DNA of 49,435 bases from a virus. Taxonomy: Duplodnaviria > Heunggongvirae > Uroviricota > Caudoviricetes. The translations under genes and the position numbers were made by a program. Numbering within the stretch: the first letter of the stretch is position 1; every line of letters begins with the position of its first letter. The stretch covers positions 1 to 49,435 of IMG/VR virus record IMGVR_UViG_2526164669_000023. One strand, written 5' to 3'. This document shows, in pieces, positions 14,660 to 25,979 of this stretch. The notes under the pieces were generated by a model. That model saw nothing but the letters and a program-made list of their open reading frames with translations. It ran no database searches and had not been told where the DNA came from.

Positions 14660-15259
14660 ATGGCGCATATACAACTGGTCAAACAAACTTCTTCTGGTTT
14701 ACTTCTCCCGGCGACGCCGGAGAGTTGCGATTTTCTGCATCAAATCAAAATAGGTGAGTGGATACACGCAGACTTTAAGCGTGTGCGTAACTACGCATTC
14801 CACAAGCGTTTTTTCAAACTCCTGCAACTGGGATTCGATTACTGGACTCCGGTCGGTGGGGCGATCACGCCTCGCGAACGAGAACTGCTGTCTGGTTTCG
14901 TTGATTACCTGTGCGAATCAGTTGGTCGGGAACACACGCCAGCCCTGAGTGATGCCGCAGAGCAATATCTGAATACAGTTGCGACACGCAGAACCCGGGA
15001 TACGGCATTGCTAAAGTCGTTTGAGGCTTTTCGCGAGTGGGTAACCATTCAGGCTGGATTTTACACCGAACATTTTTATCCGGACGGTAGCCGTGGACGC
15101 CGGGCGAAATCCATCGCTTTTGCGAATATGGACGAAACCGAGTTTCAGCAGGTTTATAAATCTGTACTGAATGTGCTGTGGAACTGGATCCTGTTCCGTA
15201 AATTTTCCTCTCCGGAGGAAGTCGAAAATGTGGTCGCACAGTTACTGGAGTTTGCGTAA
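14660..15259 (+). CDS. Lambdoid NinR-region protein (DUF1367-like)
   Basis: 199-aa ORF; first of three tightly coupled genes ending in Q; family assignment by recall only. Confidence 0.5.
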   Translation: MAHIQLVKQTSSGLLLPATPESCDFLHQIKIGEWIHADFKRVRNYAFHKRFFKLLQLGFDYWTPVGGAITPRERELLSGFVDYLCESVGREHTPALSDAAEQYLNTVATRRTRDTALLKSFEAFREWVTIQAGFYTEHFYPDGSRGRRAKSIAFANMDETEFQQVYKSVLNVLWNWILFRKFSSPEEVENVVAQLLEFA

Positions 15260-15549
15260 TGGTGGATTTACGTAAAGCGGCGCGGGGGCAGATGTGCACC
15301 GTCAGAATTCCTGGCTACTGCAATCACAATCCCGAAACTTCTGTGCTGGCGCATTACCGACTGGCGGGGACGTGCGGAACAGCGACAAAACCACACGATA
15401 TGCAGGCAGCGATTGCCTGTAGATCGTGCCACGATTTAATCGACGGGCGGGTAAAAACCAGTGATTACACCAAAGAAGAATTACGCCTGATGCATGCAGA
15501 AGGTGTTTTTCGCACACAAGAAATCTGGAGAAAGGAGGGATATTTATGA
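15259..15549 (+). CDS. Lambdoid small Cys-rich protein (DUF1364 / YbcO-like)
   Basis: 96-aa ORF with Cys/His pairs (CTVRIPGYCNHN...CRSCHD); start overlaps the previous stop. Confidence 0.5.
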   Translation: MVDLRKAARGQMCTVRIPGYCNHNPETSVLAHYRLAGTCGTATKPHDMQAAIACRSCHDLIDGRVKTSDYTKEELRLMHAEGVFRTQEIWRKEGYL

Positions 15550-16088
15550 TTTACCCAACGAATACAGGAAAAAGCGGAGAACACCTTCGTCTCACTACGC
15601 TGGAAAGTGTCTGGATTCAGGGAAAACTACGTATGTGGGGGCGCTGGTCATATATTGGTGGTGGCAGGTCAGGAAATATGTTCAATCAGTTGTTGGCATC
15701 CAAAAAATTGACGAAAACAGCCATCAATGAAGCCCTGCGCAGAATGAAAAAAGCGGGAATAGAGAAACCTGAGCTGGAAGCGTTTTTGCGAGAGATGATC
15801 AATGGTAAGCAAAAGAGCTGGCTGGCGCATTGTACTGATGCAGAGGCGTTATGTATTGATCGGGTTATAAGTGAGGTGCTGGCAGAACATCCGGGATTGA
15901 TTAGCATCCTCCGACAACGGTATGAGGGGCGAGGAATGAGTAAGAGAAGGATGGCCGGGTTACTAAACGAACAGTATCCAGAGTGGTGTTTTAGCACATG
16001 CGAAAAGCGAATTGCTAATTGGTTGGCTGTTGCTGAGTGTGCGCTATACATTCCCATGCGAGAATCATTTGCTCAAAAAATGGCTTGA
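15546..16088 (+). CDS. Late-gene antitermination protein Q-like
   Basis: 180-aa ORF immediately upstream of a promoter-plus-short-terminated-leader arrangement; position between NinR-type genes and the lysis cassette. Confidence 0.6.
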   Translation: MIYPTNTGKSGEHLRLTTLESVWIQGKLRMWGRWSYIGGGRSGNMFNQLLASKKLTKTAINEALRRMKKAGIEKPELEAFLREMINGKQKSWLAHCTDAEALCIDRVISEVLAEHPGLISILRQRYEGRGMSKRRMAGLLNEQYPEWCFSTCEKRIANWLAVAECALYIPMRESFAQKMA

Positions 16089-16171
16089 TTTCTTACGCAT
16101 AAACTGCTTCAATTCCGATACGCTTCGCAAAGCTGTATCGCGTGGCGAATTAATCGCATGAACTTCACCAG

Positions 16172-16198
16172 AACCCGCCATTGAGCGGGTTTTGTTGT
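16172..16198 (+). terminator. tR'-like intrinsic terminator of the late leader
   Basis: CCCGC-CATTGA-GCGGG hairpin then TTTTGTTGTT, about 85 nt downstream of Q; candidate pR' (TTGATT, 17-bp spacer, TTCAAT) at about 16085-16113. Confidence 0.55.
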
Positions 16199-16541
16199 TA
16201 TGTTTAACCATCTACGGGAGAGCTGGCGCTCTACTGACTGGTATTTTGATAACGAAATCTTAAATATTTTATATTGTGATTGTTAGTTGTCTAAATTTTA
16301 TGTATGTTAAGCGGCACAGGATTCCTCCTGCGACGAAGTTTTAGTGGAATCATTATTTACTTTTCTTATGCCAGCCTTTCCTTGAGGTTGGTTTTTTTAT
16401 ACCTGAAAAAGCAGGTTGGTACGTTAAACTTTATGATGGCTATGCAATTTTAGTTTCTCCTTTCCTGAACCCTATTGACTACATGGAATTTTCTTTGTTA
16501 TGTAAAGCGAGTTAATGTTGTTAAGTTGTTAGAGGATGATT

Positions 16542-17255
16542 ATGAGTGACAGTACTCTGCTCAGGAATTCTTCACTTTTTGTTGCTTACATGGGGTGTCT
16601 TGGGTGGGGAAGTGCTTATTTCTATGGCTGGGGTACTTCCTTTTACTATGGCTTTCCATGGTGGGTTGTCGGGGCCGGTGTTGATGATGTGGCCAGAAGC
16701 CTGTTTTATGCTGTCACAGTTATCGTTATATTCTTGGCTGGATGGGGGATCGGTATTGTCTTCTTTCTGGGGATCAAACAAAAAAATAATATGAAGGATT
16801 TGAGTGCTGTCAGGCTTTTTCTTGCGATATTGTTGCTTTTTGTTCCTCCGGCTCTGGAGTTTTCGGTAATTCATCAGCACTTTGTGCCAGATGCATTGGT
16901 TTTATGCGCTATTGTGGCATTAATAATTACCATGTTCGTCAGAACGGGCAGGAAGTTTATTTACGTTAAATGTATTTCTGAAGTGTCTTTTATTCGGCAT
17001 CACAAGATTGAGTGTGTTATGGCCGGATTCATGCTCTATTTCTGGTTGTTTTCGCTTATTGCTGGATGGTACAAACCTCAGTTTAAGAAGGAGTATCAGA
17101 CACTTCACTATGAGAGCGTTTGGTATTACGTTCTTGCTCGCTATGGTGATCGCTTGGTTTTATCAAAATCGTACAGGCACGGTAGTACGAATTTCGTTAT
17201 ACTTAATAGCGCACATACAGATGAATTTGAAATTAATATAGTCAAAGTGCGCTAA
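16542..17255 (+). CDS. Multi-pass membrane protein (moron, unknown function)
   Basis: About 237-aa ORF, AT-rich, aromatic/Gly-rich hydrophobic segments (GWGSAYFYGWGTSFYYGFPWWVVGAG...); RBS AGAGGA upstream of the second ATG. Confidence 0.6.
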   Translation: MSDSTLLRNSSLFVAYMGCLGWGSAYFYGWGTSFYYGFPWWVVGAGVDDVARSLFYAVTVIVIFLAGWGIGIVFFLGIKQKNNMKDLSAVRLFLAILLLFVPPALEFSVIHQHFVPDALVLCAIVALIITMFVRTGRKFIYVKCISEVSFIRHHKIECVMAGFMLYFWLFSLIAGWYKPQFKKEYQTLHYESVWYYVLARYGDRLVLSKSYRHGSTNFVILNSAHTDEFEINIVKVR

Positions 17256-17395: not shown

Positions 17396-17471
17396 GGCCC
17401 TTTAGCTCAGTGGTGAGAGCGAGCGACTCATAATCGCCTGGTCGCTGGTTCAAATCCAGCAAGGGCCACCA
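17396..17471 (+). tRNA. tRNA with CAU anticodon (Ile2/Met type, ileZ-like)
   Basis: 76 nt; acceptor GGCCCTT/AAGGGCC, anticodon loop CTCATAA, T-arm GCTGG-TTCAAAT-CCAGC, 3' CCA. Confidence 0.8.
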
Positions 17472-17473
17472 TT

Positions 17474-17550
17474 CCGCCACTAGCTCATCGGGATAGAGCA
17501 TCAACCTTCTAAGTTGATTGTGCGAGGTTCGAGTCCTCGGTGGCGGACCA
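17474..17550 (+). tRNA. tRNA-Arg (anticodon UCU)
   Basis: 77 nt; acceptor CCGCCAC/GTGGCGG, anticodon loop CTTCTAA, T-arm CGAGG-TTCGAGT-CCTCG, 3' CCA. Confidence 0.8.
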
Positions 17551-18034
17551 TTCCATGCAAGTTTAGCTGGCAGCGCTATTAGCTCGGCGTAATAGGGCTA
17601 TTCGTTAGGCTCTGTTAGTTCACCATATTTCGTCAAAACTTTTCTTTTCAACGCTACAGTTAACGTTAATCATTACAAAAACTACTGCTGATGTAAGTCT
17701 TGTGAACTGTTATTTCTGAAGAGCTTACTGTGATTTATTGCGACAACGGAGTTAGCGTACTCCCAATTTGTTCATTTTTATGTTGTTTTTTTTCACAATT
17801 TCCTGTGAGAAATCAGAAGTCTGGATGAAATAATGCAAAATGGCATCTGAATCGATCGCAGTTTGGCATTCGAATCGATCATGATTTGGCATCCATCTCC
17901 GATCACAGTTTGGCATCACAATCGATCACGATTTGGCATACTTCCGATCATTGATTGGCATTCGCCAGTCACTCCGGGAATTAACTCTTTTCACCACAGT
18001 CTCCATTGCCGTGTTTAAACCAGTGGAGACGTCA

Positions 18035-19600
18035 ATGTCCAAAAAGAGAAAATCCAGGAGCACTATGGAAACTTGTTTTAAGATCCTTCAGCTCAAGTTC
18101 GATAAGAAGCTGACTAACCGTTGTATCGGACTGACGTTACACATCAGCGCCTCAACCGTTTTTGAGGTTCTTGCCCGCTTCAAAGCCTCTTCTCTGTCAT
18201 GGCCATTACCTGCTGATATATCCCATGACACGCTGGAGAAACTCATTTTCCCGCCCAAAGACACCTCTGCGTCAGAGCTTGTTATGCCTGACATGCTGTA
18301 CTTCGATACGGAAATGAGAAAACCTGGCGTGACGCGCCAACTGTTGTGGATGGAATACAAGGCACAGGCGGGTGACAAAGCGATGGGATACTCACACTTC
18401 TGCCGTTGCTACCGGAAGTGGAAAAAAACGCGACGCCTCTCCATGCGACAGGAGCATCGTGCTGGCGAAAAGCTCTTTATCGACTTCTGTGGTCCTACGC
18501 TTCCTGTTATTAATCCGGACACCGGAGAGATACGCCGCGTGGCAATCTTCGTGGCTGTAATGGGGGCGTCCAACTATACCTATGTTGAAGCGTGCGAAGG
18601 TCAGGACATGATGTCATGGTTAAATGCCCACAGCCGTTGCCTGACCTTCCTGGGCGGCGTACCGAAGCTGCTCATCCCCGATAACCTCAGAAGCGCAGTG
18701 AAAAAAGCCGATCGCTATGAGCCTGTCATCAACGACAGTTATCAGGCGCTGGCTGAGCACTATGGCACGGTTATTATCCCGGCCCGCCCGCGCAAACCTA
18801 AAGATAAACCAAAAGCAGAAAACGGCGTCCTCATCGTCGAGCGATGGCTTCTTGCCCGCATCCGTAATGAAACCTTCCACACGCTCAGGGCGCTGAATGC
18901 ACGCCTTCGGGAGTTGCTGACGGACATGAATAACCGACCAATGAAGGGATACGGTAATCAAACCCGCGCAGAACGCTTCCGCATGCTGGATGCACCAGCA
19001 CTCTCTCCGCTGCCTCTGGAGCCTTATGAATACACGGAATACAAAGCCGTGAAGGTTGGCCCTGACTACCACGTTGAATATGCCCGTCACTGGTACTCCG
19101 TTCCACACGAACTGGTCGGTCAGCGTCTGTCACTGAAGGTGGGGCAGTCGGTGGTACAGCTCTGGCACAAGGGGCAGTGTGTGGCGCAACATCCGCGCAG
19201 CACACATGAATATAAACACACAACCAATCCGCTTCACATGCCAGAACGCCACCGGCGGCATGGGACATGGACACCGGAACGCCTTATCGAGCAGGGAAAC
19301 CGTACAGGTCCGTCCACAGGCCGGGTGGTTGAATCCATGCTGAAAGCCAAACCCCATCCGGAGCTGGCTTACCGTGCAGTCCTGGGTCTGCTGGCACTTC
19401 AGAAAAAATACGGCCCGGAACGGCTGGAAAAGGCCTGTTACGTTGCCCTGCACTATAACGCCCCGGACAGACGCTTTATCGACAATCTGCTGCGTCATCA
19501 TCGGGATAACGTTGAGCTTCCGTTATCCCGCCAGGGCGAACAACATCCGGCATATGCTTCAGAGCATGAAAACCTGCGTGGTCCTGGCTACTACCACTGA
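18035..19600 (+). CDS. istA: IS21-family transposase IstA
   Basis: 521 aa from MSKKRKSRSTMETCF; N-terminal HTH and DDE-type core; followed by an IstB ATPase. Confidence 0.8.
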   Translation: MSKKRKSRSTMETCFKILQLKFDKKLTNRCIGLTLHISASTVFEVLARFKASSLSWPLPADISHDTLEKLIFPPKDTSASELVMPDMLYFDTEMRKPGVTRQLLWMEYKAQAGDKAMGYSHFCRCYRKWKKTRRLSMRQEHRAGEKLFIDFCGPTLPVINPDTGEIRRVAIFVAVMGASNYTYVEACEGQDMMSWLNAHSRCLTFLGGVPKLLIPDNLRSAVKKADRYEPVINDSYQALAEHYGTVIIPARPRKPKDKPKAENGVLIVERWLLARIRNETFHTLRALNARLRELLTDMNNRPMKGYGNQTRAERFRMLDAPALSPLPLEPYEYTEYKAVKVGPDYHVEYARHWYSVPHELVGQRLSLKVGQSVVQLWHKGQCVAQHPRSTHEYKHTTNPLHMPERHRRHGTWTPERLIEQGNRTGPSTGRVVESMLKAKPHPELAYRAVLGLLALQKKYGPERLEKACYVALHYNAPDRRFIDNLLRHHRDNVELPLSRQGEQHPAYASEHENLRGPGYYH

Positions 19601-19616
19601 CAGAAGGAACAACCGT

Positions 19617-20372
19617 ATGAGTGATAATCTGTTAAACAAACTGACCCAACTGAAACTCCCGGCGATGGCCGGGAGCCTGATACGGCAACGGGAAACGCCT
19701 CAGACTTACGACGAACTGTCGTTCGAGGAAAGGCTGACACTGCTGGTTGATGACGAGCTTCTGAGCAGAGAAAACAGTCGTGTGGCACGGTTGAGAAAAA
19801 ATGCCTGCCTGAAATATCAGGCAACACCGGAAGGGCTGCGTTATCCGGCCTCAAGAGGTCTGCGGGCTGAACAGATGAGGGAACTGCTGAACGGCCACTA
19901 CATAATCCACAGGAAAAACCTACTGATAACCGGTCCGACAGGATGCGGTAAGAGCTGGATAGCCAATGCGCTGGGCGAACAGGCATGTCGACAGAAATAC
20001 AGCGTCCGGTACTGTAGAACCGGGCGATTACTGGAACAGTTGGCTCAGGGACGTGTTGATGGCAGTTGGCTGAAATATCTGAAACAGTTGCAAAAAATAC
20101 AGGTTCTAATCCTGGACGATCTGGGGCTGGAACAGTTAAGTAACGCCCAGTGTAATGACCTTCTGGAGATCACAGAGGATCGTTACGGACAAAGCAGCAC
20201 GATAGTGGTAAGCCAGTTCCCGGTAGATAAATGGCATGGTCTGATGGAGAACCCAACAACAGCAGATGCCATCCTGGACAGACTGGTACATAACTCACAC
20301 AGAGTGGTCCTTCAGGGAGAGTCCCTGAGGAAAAATCCCCCGACAGTGGAAAGCAGCGAAAAAACGAGTTAA
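19617..20372 (+). CDS. istB: IS21-family helper ATPase IstB
   Basis: 251 aa from MSDNLLNKLTQLKLPAMAG; Walker A GPTGCGKSWIANAL, Walker B VLILDDLG. Confidence 0.8.
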   Translation: MSDNLLNKLTQLKLPAMAGSLIRQRETPQTYDELSFEERLTLLVDDELLSRENSRVARLRKNACLKYQATPEGLRYPASRGLRAEQMRELLNGHYIIHRKNLLITGPTGCGKSWIANALGEQACRQKYSVRYCRTGRLLEQLAQGRVDGSWLKYLKQLQKIQVLILDDLGLEQLSNAQCNDLLEITEDRYGQSSTIVVSQFPVDKWHGLMENPTTADAILDRLVHNSHRVVLQGESLRKNPPTVESSEKTS

Positions 20373-21147
20373 AAAGCGGTAGAAAAAGTTAAGTTCCCGG
20401 TTGATCGAATGGATGCGAATCGCTGATCGAACTTCGATGCCAATCCGTGATCGAATAGAGCGGAATACGCAAATAACGTAAATTGTATGCGTATGATACA
20501 TATTTATACATATATTTAAATATGAAAACTAATTAGTTTTTGATGTCATATAAATTATCGGTAATATTACTCCCGACCCGAAAGGCAGCAAGTTTCTGTT
20601 CACAGGGGTGTTACCCGCTGTCTTGCGGGTCATTGCAGGCATCCGTTTAATCATAATGAAGGGCTGTTATCAGTATCAGTGTCATTATTGTGGTTACGGA
20701 GGCCTGCTCTATGTGCAGGTATCGTATAGTGGTTATTACATCAGCCTTAGGTTGGTAATGCCGGTTCGATTCCTGTTCTCCGCAACTTCATTGTTTTTTG
20801 GACAAGTTTTTACAGCACTGGCGGTTTTCGTGAGGAACAGATCTCTTTAATACCTTTATCGTCCCTCATTCTGTAATGGAGATCGGTTACAGACTCAGTG
20901 CTGTATTTTTTATGACACAGAAATGGCGCATTGCCCACGAAAGGAAGCAGGATTTAGCGTGGAGTAACCAGTGATGCGCCATCTCTGTGTCGGAAAACAT
21001 GAATTGGGGCGTTCCTCAGTGCGAGGGTGGTTTATAGAGTCGGTTTAGCGGGAAACCACAGTATCCACGTAAAGTGGAATACTTCGGGAGGCACCCGATG
21101 CCCCAAACCCAATAATCATTATAATATTGTGTCCTTTTATCGTTTTA

Positions 21148-21316
21148 GCCGCCGCCCCGGGCGGTTTTTTTATTCAGTTTTTTATGGCTCGCTCCGGCGG
21201 GCCTTTTTCATATCCGCGCCACGCCCGGCGCACATCACATCAGATAACACCACACAAAAGGCATCTGCGGGTGCCTTTGACAGGGTGTTTTTACGGGCCG
21301 CTGGTGGCCCTTTTTT
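21148..21316 (+). terminator. Cluster of three to four tandem intrinsic terminators upstream of the lysis cassette
   Basis: Hairpin plus T-run units at about 21148-21172, 21186-21208, 21259-21279 (weak) and 21292-21316. Confidence 0.5.
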
Positions 21317-21335
21317 ATTTGTGGGAGGAAAAAGC

Positions 21336-21728
21336 ATGTCTGAACCCTTATCCGGTTCCGGTACGGCTGCGGCGCTCGGTGGGGCGACGGTATTTGGACT
21401 GTTTACCGGAACGGATTTCGGGATTGTGTTTGGTGCATTCGCCGGGGCGTTGTTTGTGGCGACGATACCCCAGCAGATTTCTGTCTGGCGTGTGGCGGCG
21501 CATTTTCTGGTGTCGTTTATCGTTGGCGTGCTGGGGGCGGATGTCATGGCGTCTTATCTGGTCGAAAAACTGGGGCTACACAGCACATCTCTCGACGCGC
21601 TTTGCGCGGTACTGGTATCGGTGATTTCGGTGAAGATTCTGTCGTTCATCCACCAGCAGGATATTGCATCACTGGTATCCGGCCTGTTCTCCCGCCTGCG
21701 GGATGGAGGAGGCGGCAATGTCAGGTAA
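21336..21728 (+). CDS. Holin (putative)
   Basis: 130-aa small protein with Gly/Ala-rich hydrophobic segments; RBS GGGAGGAA; first gene of the lysis cassette. Confidence 0.6.
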   Translation: MSEPLSGSGTAAALGGATVFGLFTGTDFGIVFGAFAGALFVATIPQQISVWRVAAHFLVSFIVGVLGADVMASYLVEKLGLHSTSLDALCAVLVSVISVKILSFIHQQDIASLVSGLFSRLRDGGGGNVR

Positions 21729-21993
21729 CCTTCCCGGATTGCTGAATGTGGCGTTATGCACGGTTATCGTACTGACGCTCTTTTTTTACCGTCGTCGTGA
21801 TTCCAGACATAAACCGCTGATGTCATGGCTGGCCTGGCTGTTGATGCTGCTTTATGCCTTTGCGCCACTCAGCTATCTGTGTGGTCGTCCGTTAGCAATG
21901 GGCTGGCTGGAAGTGTTTTTTAATCTGTTGTTCTGCGTGCTGGTAATACGCGCACGCGGGAACGTCACAAAAATCTTTCCATTGTTGAGGTGA
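21718..21993 (+). CDS. Second small lysis membrane protein (holin/antiholin-like)
   Basis: About 91 aa from MSGNLPGLLNVALCTVIVLTLFFY; two hydrophobic segments; overlaps the holin stop; RBS GGAGGAGG. Confidence 0.5.
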   Translation: MSGNLPGLLNVALCTVIVLTLFFYRRRDSRHKPLMSWLAWLLMLLYAFAPLSYLCGRPLAMGWLEVFFNLLFCVLVIRARGNVTKIFPLLR

Positions 21994-21995
21994 AT

Positions 21996-22373
21996 ATGTC
22001 GGGTAAATTCAGATTCAGCCGTCGCAGTGAAAAAAATCTGGAGGGCGTCAAACCACAGCTGGTTGCTGTCGTTCGCCGTGCGCTGGAGCTGACGGAGGTT
22101 GATTTCGGTATTACGGAAGGCCTGCGCAGTAAGTATCGCCAGAAACAGCTGGTTGCAGAAGGCAAGAGCCAGACCATGAACAGCCGCCACCTGACAGGTG
22201 ATGCGGTGGATGTTGTTGCCTACATTGGTAGCCAGGTGTCATGGGACTGGCCTCTGTACGAGAAAATCGCGCAGGCATTTAAGCAGGCTGCCGCAGAGCT
22301 GGGAACTGCCATCGAATGGGGCGGGGACTGGAAAACACTGAAAGACGGACCTCACTTTCAGTTGAAACGCTGA
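21996..22373 (+). CDS. Endolysin, peptidase M15-like (L-alanyl-D-glutamate peptidase type)
   Basis: About 125-aa ORF following the holin genes; motifs SRHLTGDAVDV and WGGDW fit my recollection of M15 endolysins; start 21990 (GTG) or 21996 (ATG). Confidence 0.6.
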   Translation: MSGKFRFSRRSEKNLEGVKPQLVAVVRRALELTEVDFGITEGLRSKYRQKQLVAEGKSQTMNSRHLTGDAVDVVAYIGSQVSWDWPLYEKIAQAFKQAAAELGTAIEWGGDWKTLKDGPHFQLKR

Positions 22374-22387
22374 TAACCAGGTGTGTT

Positions 22388-22570
22388 ATGAGCAGAAAAC
22401 ACTGGACACACAGAACGCCGCGAACAGCGGCGAAATGGGCACTGGTAGCGATACTGGTGCCTTTTTTATTGGTGGGATGCGTTAGCCTGGATAAGGCGCG
22501 CCAGCTTTTCGATACCGCGTCTCAGGTCTGTCAGCTTATTGATGGTGTTCGGCAGTGTATGCAGAACTGA
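22388..22570 (+). CDS. Lysis-associated lipoprotein (Rz1/o-spanin-like)
   Basis: 60 aa from MSRKHWTHRTPRT; signal peptide and lipobox LLVGC; downstream of the endolysin. Confidence 0.45.
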   Translation: MSRKHWTHRTPRTAAKWALVAILVPFLLVGCVSLDKARQLFDTASQVCQLIDGVRQCMQN

Positions 22571-24887: not shown

Positions 24888-25979
24888 ATGAGCAGACCGG
24901 ACTGGGGGGCGTTGCAGCAGGAATATATTGCTGAATACACCCGCTCCGGTGTATCCCCGGTGGCATGGTGTGAGGCAAGGGGACTGAATTACGCAACAGC
25001 CCGTCGTTACATCAAAAAACCTCCGAAAAATGCGCAGACAGAAATGCGCAAAACTGCGCAACAAAGTGCGCAGAAAAAATCTGCGCAGACTGCGCAAAAG
25101 CGGAACGGAAAATCTCAGAAAAAAAAGCCAGTATCCGATGCGTGCCTGAATGAGGGCGACGCGGAGGAATTTTCGTTCTGCCCCGATGAATTCGGCATTT
25201 CTGACCAGCAGGCTAAGTTTGCGATGCTTGTTGCTCAGGGGAAAAAGCCGACAGAGGCATACCGACTGGCTGGTTATGAGGGGCAAGGTGCGACAGCTAA
25301 CAGCAACGCCAGCCGTATGCTTAGAAATGCCAGGGTTTATCGTGCTATCAGCTACTTCCGCAATCAGTATCAGAAACGCTATACCGCAGACCTGGATTTA
25401 CTGGTGAGTCAGTTGATGGCCATTGTCCAGGCCGACCCCAATCAGTTGGCACAATTTCGCCGTGTTAACTGCCGTTATTGCTGGGGCGAGAATCACCTCT
25501 ACCAGTGGCGTGATATTGCAGAATTCGATAAGGCAGCGGCACAGGCCTCCAGAGATGGCAAACCCGAGCCGGAATATGGAGGCCTCGGCTTTGTTGATAA
25601 CGCCATACCCAATCCGGATTGTCCGAAGTGCTGCGGTGAGGGAACGGGACAGCTTTATATGGCTGATACCACTCTGCTTGATGGGGATGCACGACAATTA
25701 TATGCAGGGGCAAAGCTCGGGAAATTTGGTGTTGAGATCCTGCTGGAGGATAAGGCTGCCGCCCGGCGCGAACTTATCAAGCTGATAATGGCGACGAAAG
25801 GAAGTTCTGCTGGTGGTGCAACTGACAGTCGCAATGATCTGGAGCTTGAAGGACTGAGGCTTCGCAACGAAAAGCTGCGCACTGAGATTGAAAACCTCAA
25901 AAAAGGCGTGGGTGGTGAGAATAACGAAATAATTATCCACAACTCTCTGCCGATGCCGGGAGTGGATAATGTCGATTGA
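24888..25979 (+). CDS. Terminase small subunit
   Basis: 363-aa ORF; HTH-like signature AKFAMLVAQGKKPTEAYRLAGYEG; Cys pairs (CRYCWGEN...CPKCCGEG); directly upstream of the large terminase. Confidence 0.6.
   Translation: MSRPDWGALQQEYIAEYTRSGVSPVAWCEARGLNYATARRYIKKPPKNAQTEMRKTAQQSAQKKSAQTAQKRNGKSQKKKPVSDACLNEGDAEEFSFCPDEFGISDQQAKFAMLVAQGKKPTEAYRLAGYEGQGATANSNASRMLRNARVYRAISYFRNQYQKRYTADLDLLVSQLMAIVQADPNQLAQFRRVNCRYCWGENHLYQWRDIAEFDKAAAQASRDGKPEPEYGGLGFVDNAIPNPDCPKCCGEGTGQLYMADTTLLDGDARQLYAGAKLGKFGVEILLEDKAAARRELIKLIMATKGSSAGGATDSRNDLELEGLRLRNEKLRTEIENLKKGVGGENNEIIIHNSLPMPGVDNVD

Follow-up and report, generated by a model that had tools for sequence, protein, structure and literature searches.

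Four hairpins, each followed by a T-rich tract, are stacked on the plus strand directly upstream of the holin gene in the analysed window (the whole stretch of 49,435 nucleotides), and they resolve into two conserved pairs. We hold it probable that all four (T1 to T4) are genuine Rho-independent terminators, termination itself being predicted. Pair A (T1 and T2) is read here as the end of a phage tRNA/small-RNA cassette, and pair B (T3 and T4) as the closing element of a variable moron slot which lies before the lysis cassette. The array would block transcription that has not been antiterminated while a Q-modified polymerase would pass it; this role is plausible and fits the conserved layout of the region.

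The window is a lambdoid Escherichia coli prophage, identical over the tested kilobase to a prophage of strain OkiPb01675. Its plus strand carries DUF1367, a YbcO-like nuclease and a Q-like gene (14660-16088), the last being an intact late antiterminator gene (15546-16088) whose DUF1133-type product matches Pfam DUF1133 at 353 bits and is weakly Q-like by Phage_antitermQ (28.6 bits). A promoter-like site was found after this gene by sequence and scan (16085-16113, plus strand), followed by a candidate tR′ hairpin (16169-16194, plus strand) with a poor T tract, for which reason the true first target of Q is uncertain. Also past the Q-like gene, another promoter-like site lies at 16246-16275 (TTGATA-18-TATATT) and a strong hairpin followed by T7 at 16370-16399; together they may form a small RNA unit of about 115 nt. 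Further along the plus strand come a membrane-protein moron (16536-17255) and two tRNA genes (17396-17550), and then an IS21-like element (ISSso4 family, istA/istB, 17834-20470, with a duplication of about 6 bp), which sits between the tRNA pair and the RNA cassette and splits the tRNA genes from the RNA domains downstream. The element is absent from a near-identical prophage (L002, strain RM11911) and is a recent insertion. After it lies a weak tRNA-like gene (20715-20784, plus strand; Rfam tRNA model, 31.8 bits), which is uncalled by ARAGORN and missing from the RefSeq annotation; it aligns with tRNA-Gly(TCC) of the relatives and looks degenerate. The lysis cassette, also on the plus strand, opens with the holin (Phage_holin_8, 21336-21728; Pfam and the RefSeq annotation of the identical prophage) and continues with a second holin (Phage_holin_3_7, 21718-21993) and an M15 endolysin (21996-22373). 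The order of Q gene, late promoter, terminators and lysis genes on one strand is found here and is the same in the relatives.

The preliminary description had noted three to four hairpin and T-run units before the holin, and reading and folding of the sequence gave four. T1 has a 7-bp stem with a 6-nt loop (21147-21166, AGCCGCC/GGCGGTT; -11.4 to -12.5 kcal/mol) and a T7 tract at 21165-21171, and T2 has a 7-bp stem closed by a UCCG tetraloop (21186-21203, GGCTCGC-TCCG-GCGGGCC; -13.4 to -14.6 kcal/mol) with T5 at 21204-21208. Next to T2 is a conserved G+C-rich hairpin, Hx (21216-21231, plus strand; -10.1 kcal/mol), which is not counted as a terminator because it has no T run. T3 is a composite in which a 9-bp core with a tetraloop (21257-21278; -13.4 kcal/mol) is enclosed by an outer helix (21246-21251/21284-21289), the whole reaching about -21 kcal/mol, with T5 at 21288-21292 and a C/A-rich single strand on the 5′ side of the outer helix. 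T4 has a stem of five G-C pairs with a 6-nt loop (21295-21310, GGGCC/GGCCC; -9.4 to -10.8 kcal/mol) and a T6-A-T3 tail (21311-21320). The Shine-Dalgarno sequence of the holin (GGGAGGA, 21323-21329) begins 3 nt past this tail, before the ATG at 21336. The in silico prediction that had been proposed as a check calls T1, T2 and T4 by the built-in scan; T3 is missed because of its internal loop and is recognisable as an intrinsic terminator only as a composite hairpin. The thermodynamic weakness named beforehand as an objection was not observed, as the hairpins range from -9.4 to -21.6 kcal/mol against a level of about -8 kcal/mol or lower. T4, with 5 bp and about -10 kcal/mol, or T3, with its unusual 5x5 internal loop, could be inefficient.

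All four units are oriented with the late genes, T3 alone being terminator-like on the minus strand too. The permissive terminator scan was too noisy for statistics, and a census of a strict motif (5 bp or more with no fewer than 4 G-C pairs, a loop of 3-8 and 5 or more consecutive T) together with a matched-control census was used instead. The strict motif occurs at 10 plus-strand sites in the whole 49.4 kb and three of the ten (T1, T2 and T4) are inside these 170 nt, where 0.034 are expected (Poisson P of at least three about 7e-6 per interval). The units are stacked directly 5′ of the holin as had been described. A repeat search found that T1 to T4 are not copies of each other, with only 16 nt at 81% shared between the 3′ arms of T2 and T4, and tandem duplication was rejected. 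Host palindromes of the REP/BIME type were rejected as well, since every carrier locus whose annotation was read belongs to the late region of a prophage and no consensus is common to the hairpins; the matches fall in a median of one place per carrier genome. The scan found no promoter-like site on the plus strand between 17834 and 23952. A hidden promoter inside the array driving the holin was also looked for and none was found, the TATAAT at 21120-21125 being without a -35 element and not conserved.

The division into pairs is seen by comparison with the relative L003. Window positions 21181-21239 align to L003 3182-3240 with 56 of 59 positions identical, and 21244-21328 align to L003 3918-4003, while the 677 bp between them in L003 (3241-3917), which hold a structured leader, terB and a DUF3927 gene, have no counterpart in the window. 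The junction of the empty slot is thereby placed at 21239-21244, with the 3′ side of Hx as the left edge of the slot. The order T1, T2, Hx, structured leader, terB, DUF3927 gene, T3, T4 and holin is found in L003 and in several IMG/VR contigs, and the TerB/DUF3927 cassette also follows T2 and Hx in L106, L166, L177 and L205. Phages thus differ in whether a cassette, closed on its 3′ side by a terminator, interrupts otherwise collinear sequence, as at the boundary of a moron, and all four terminators abut here because the slot holds no TerB/DUF3927 cassette. T3 adjoins the stop codon of whichever gene fills the slot in the relatives (the DUF3927 gene in L003). Over 48 distinct sequences the pairing of T3 is kept in 97% of cells and the stem of T4 in 98.8%, the T4 loop varying freely. 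In the isolated phage vB_EcoS-683R6, T3 and T4 stand in front of a holin of the lambda S type, and in E2348/69 the S holin likewise has a T4-like hairpin before it; since the holin family differs, the pair belongs to no single holin gene but shows where the variable region ends. A literature search with the hairpin sequences gave a sole match, a knockout primer in a paper on the Stx2e holin, and this primer sequence places the same T3 tail and T4 before this holin in Stx2e prophages (PMC12571312).

Several other features of the slot were observed in the relatives. The leader of the terB moron, between Hx and the terB start codon, is long and strongly self-complementary (ACCACAGAGCC...GGCTCACCC; L003 3241-3346), and a self-complementary leader is present in L106, L166, L177 and L205 as well. 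A non-systematic look at the sequences that were read showed no consensus promoter between T2 and terB. In many relatives, among them vB_EcoS-683R6 (L210 3660-3900), L005, L056 and L081, T1 is separated from Hx by a further conserved block of about 250 nt that is rich in hairpins; it includes a terminator-like hairpin on the minus strand (L210 3713-3690) and is missing from the window. Just before T3, about 60-100 nt upstream of the holin, the relatives L023, L025 and L035 carry one to three tandem copies of a C/A-rich unit of 10 nt, CACCAGAAAA.

It is also conceivable, though we think it unlikely, that T3 and T4 with the preceding C/A-rich stretch chiefly make up an Hfq-binding regulatory RNA, as its body and 3′ end, for which termination is secondary; such an RNA could be derived from a 3′ UTR or processed, like those flanking the toxin cassettes in Stx phages. 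An A-R-N-rich single strand before a hairpin with a U tail, and the expansion of the 10-nt unit in three relatives, agree with such an RNA, and so do two positional parallels, namely that the same DUF3927-to-holin position in E2348/69 holds the validated small RNA PasD1 and that EcOnc42 flanks stx1 on its 3′ side (PMC7547250). On the other hand, the scan shows no promoter-like site before T3 and T4, they have no Rfam match and no sequence similarity to PasA, PasC or PasD, and their conservation is concentrated in the stems and T runs rather than in a putative seed. Identity of T3 and T4 with PasA, PasC or PasD was rejected directly, the sequences being unrelated and PasA and PasC lying on the opposite strand. 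The probabilities that we attach to this and the other alternatives are not meant to add up to one, because an Hfq-binding RNA is compatible with T3 and T4 being terminators.

Terminators close to the holin are strongly conserved in the wider set of relatives. Counted per 400 nt, simple terminator motifs have a mean of 2.34 in 68 distinct holin-upstream regions and 0.455 in 701 control intervals drawn from the same loci, an enrichment of about five-fold, and at least three motifs are present in 40 of the 68 regions against 5 of the 701 controls. Hairpin-plus-T runs without homology to these occupy the same place before distant holin homologues of Enterobacter, Silvania and Leclercia, with two in tandem before the holin in Silvania and Leclercia. 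The stack could instead be a neutral by-product of mosaic recombination, each terminator having arrived with its module and the conserved boundaries serving only as homology patches for module exchange with no selected insulation. The mosaic junctions do fall exactly at the hairpins, the sequences upstream of T1, T2 and T3 differ across loci, and the four units adjoin here only through the missing moron. This explanation is nevertheless quite improbable, more so than the Hfq-binding RNA, given that terminators without homology to each other are found again in front of holins of distant genera and of another holin family, that wobble or compensatory changes preserve the stems whereas the loops drift, and that the enrichment is about five-fold over controls from the same loci.

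Within pair A, many relatives have T2 about 20 nt past T1, while in L022, L050 and L067 T2 comes after other, unrelated genes, and its stem is kept through wobble and compensatory changes (for example GGTTCG..CGGACC and GGCTCGC..GCGAGCT). T2 would be a back-up terminator which catches the read-through of T1. T1 itself is predicted to be the terminator of an STnc100-like small RNA, and it is probably the Hfq-binding 3′ end of an sRNA of about 165 nt. D3, a spacer and T1 (21006-21172) make up a divergent sRNA gene of the STnc100/PasD group of prophage sRNAs, presumably an expressed one. D3 is a 5′ domain with a four-way junction (21006-21104, plus strand), built of helices P1 (21006-21011/21099-21104), P2 (21014-21017/21023-21026), P3 (21027-21033/21053-21059), P4 (21060-21067/21075-83) and P5 (21084-21088/21094-21098), all on the plus strand. 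The AT-rich spacer (21105-21146, plus strand) varies in sequence and in length among the relatives, from about 40 to about 110 nt, and by analogy with PasD it is a candidate seed region.

The relatives were found via the holin protein and via an invariant 16-mer, TTCGGGAGGCACCCGA, and alignment of 46 distinct D3/T1 homologues (alignment A2) supports the fold by covariation. In D3, 93.7% of cells are paired against about 45% when the partners are slid, and compensatory changes occur at 17 of 35 pairs; none of 500 shuffles reaches the observed values. That P5 does not vary is due solely to the search motif, which selected for it. T1 is always downstream of D3 in the aligned relatives, and its stem is kept in 99% of cells, covarying from CCGCC/GGCGG to CCACC/GGTGG or CAGCC/GGCTG. 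Copies of D3 on plasmids are in IS-ridden fragments and are uninformative, and a literature search for the D3 sequence found nothing. Though D3 is cloverleaf-like, a true tRNA was rejected, as it is called neither by ARAGORN nor by the Rfam tRNA model at E up to 10.

The homology to STnc100 and PasD rests on intermediates, because Rfam misses the window copy and the model built here misses PasD1. The window copy gives only fragments of 10.1 and 9.4 bits with the Rfam STnc100 model (RF02076), below its gathering score of 47, and a 1-kb Rfam search at E up to 10 returned no STnc100 match to it. The same model matches other members of A2 at 38.1 (L049), 27.3 (L079), 26.8 (L097), 26 (L108) and 23 bits (L009), and the cmscan alignment has the same layout of P1, P2, P5 and terminator with identical P2 and P5 loops. 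In the other direction, a model built here from A2 (R1) matches a bona fide STnc100 of 84.6 bits at 27.3 bits (E 2.6e-4); this copy (L010) is in an Enterobacter genome, beside a tRNA and upstream of a holin homologue. R1 gave no match on L211 at E up to 1, and no similarity to PasD1/PasD2 of E2348/69 was detected. PasD1, a validated Hfq-dependent sRNA of EPEC E2348/69, itself matches STnc100 at 37.7 bits and is located between a DUF3927 gene and the holin, so the relation of the window sRNA to PasD is indirect. Membership of D3, spacer and T1 in the STnc100/PasD group follows from the RF02076 matches to A2, the R1 match to STnc100, and the match and position of PasD1. PasD and STnc100 are expressed and Hfq-associated in other strains (PMC8550237, PMC12370729).

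A conserved multi-helix RNA directly 5′ of a conserved terminator also resembles a sensor (riboswitch or attenuator) which would decide termination at T1 and so regulate read-through to the lysis genes. This is very improbable and was rejected as a riboswitch for T1, since the D3-T1 spacer is not conserved in length and P1 covaries (C-G to U-A) with no matching change in T1, from which it follows that there is no conserved antiterminator pairing; moreover, three more terminators come after T1 anyway. In phage HK022 the put element is a structured RNA that is followed by terminators. A put-like action of D3 in cis, making the polymerase terminator-resistant so that the array is crossed without Q, is suggested by the similar layout of structured RNA, several terminators and essential late genes, and has just as little probability in our judgement, for every carrier examined also encodes a Q-type protein and the relatives PasD and STnc100 are discrete Hfq-associated sRNAs that end at their own terminator in other strains (PMC8550237).

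Beside the STnc100/PasD-like sRNA two further RNA domains were found on the plus strand, between the tRNA-like gene and the sRNA. D1 (20811-20905, then T6 at 20906-20911) is a three-way junction closed by TACAGCACTG/CAGTGCTGTA, and D2 (about 20905-21000) is a long irregular hairpin. In an alignment of 21 sequences (A4), 96.6% of their cells are paired against 30-57% with the partners slid, and compensatory changes are seen at 15 of 32 pairs, which none of 500 shuffles reaches. Neither domain has a match in Rfam at E up to 10. The RNA region of 386 nt is present in all or in part in 290 of 5426 complete E. coli genomes (about 5%) and is never annotated as RNA among the matches listed. Tentatively, and with rather low expectation, 20811-21172 (about 370 nt; D1, D2, D3 and T1) may be one multi-domain RNA, co-transcribed with the tRNA genes and released by processing of the tRNA type, with a cloverleaf-shaped, STnc100-like domain at its 3′ end; it would be a large non-coding phage RNA of a new class, and the terminators would be stacked because a heavily transcribed cassette lies beside a lethal gene. 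In its extreme version, D3 may act as put RNA does and modify in cis the polymerase that transcribes it.

For the preferred reading, in which the array is a barrier of terminators, the proposed working is as follows. T1 would end the sRNA with T2 as its back-up, and T3 and T4 would end whatever moron occupies the slot, so that in the lysogen ordinary RNA polymerase is kept from the holin, whether its source is leakage past tR′, the tRNA/sRNA cassette, a moron or the IS. Once the prophage is induced, the Q-like protein would modify polymerase at the late promoter, and this polymerase would ignore all the terminators and transcribe the lysis genes; the read-through is inferred from the lambdoid model, in which PR′ is constitutive, terminated in the lysogen and read through with Q (PMC7547250). 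The role fits with the intact Q-like gene in the same orientation, the conserved terminators next to the holin and the lack of a promoter-like site between array and holin. The preliminary description had thought of transcription coming out of the IS or morons; insulation from upstream transcription is retained, but the main transcription to be stopped probably comes from the tRNA/sRNA cassette and not specifically from the IS, a recent insertion that L002 lacks.

Silencing of lysis genes beside active morons, tRNAs and sRNAs matters for the stability of the lysogen, because expression of the holin kills the host. In related Stx2e and LT-II prophages the toxin genes are in or next to the interval from Q to the lysis genes (those for Stx2e lie upstream of the holin and those for LT-II downstream of the endolysin), and from this position the barrier of terminators may also bear on toxin release. 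Conservation of the barrier extends over holins of different types, and its build is modular.

As kinds of element, intrinsic terminators stacked in the Q-to-lysis interval, sRNA genes located there and terminators that border morons are already known, and the window offers a clear, well-conserved example of them. The array shares with the PR′-tR′ system of lambdoid and Stx phages the intrinsic terminators between Q gene with late promoter and lysis genes in the same orientation, and the presumed logic, by which termination is constitutive in the lysogen and induction brings read-through that depends on Q (PMC7547250). It is not tR′ itself, as the first hairpin after the Q gene is at 16169-16194 and the array is 5 kb further. 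In comparison with the lambdoid Q terminators it is separated from the Q gene upstream by about 5.2 kb (about 2.6 kb if the IS is left out) with morons, tRNAs and RNA genes in between, it forms a four-fold stack directly at the holin, and the Q protein is of the DUF1133 type. With lambdoid morons the region shares a TerB/DUF3927 or other cassette that is present or absent between collinear sequences and bounded by terminators, whereas here the slot is empty, the bounding terminators alone remain and no moron promoter was identified. PasA and PasC of EPEC/EHEC prophages are likewise small RNA genes, in the intergenic space immediately before a holin-lysozyme operon; those two are encoded on the opposite strand, flanked by an esterase gene and the holin, and share no sequence with T1 to T4. 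STnc100 (RF02076) and PasD (EcOnc13) have in common with the window sRNA a multi-helix 5′ domain with the same loops in P2 and P5 (..CAGUGCG.. and CGGGAGGCACCCG), a single strand after it, an intrinsic terminator and the place between Q and holin, often after tRNAs, DUF3927 or stx2 (PMC12370729; bioRxiv 10.64898/2026.05.13.724894). The window sRNA differs in P3, P4 and the spacer, has no evident promoter of its own and follows the extra domains D1 and D2 and the tRNA-like gene. What is new is modest: the resolution of the four-fold stack into two conserved pairs around an empty moron slot, a divergent and unannotated STnc100/PasD-like branch undetected by Rfam 15, and two extra covarying RNA domains upstream of it, which current Rfam-based annotation likewise misses.

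Some minor observations were made elsewhere in the window. Just after the endolysin, a strict terminator motif (22437-22462, 11-bp stem and T5) lies inside a lipoprotein ORF of 60 aa (22388-22570). Near the integrase end, the RalA antitoxin sRNA was matched at 1557-1735 (Rfam, 225 bits), so the prophage carries a toxin-antitoxin locus of the RalR/RalA type. At the 5′ end of the small-terminase gene there are four overlapping TGCGCA-based palindromes with T runs on the minus strand (25031-25098), which could be a packaging-site-like repeat or could have arisen by chance.
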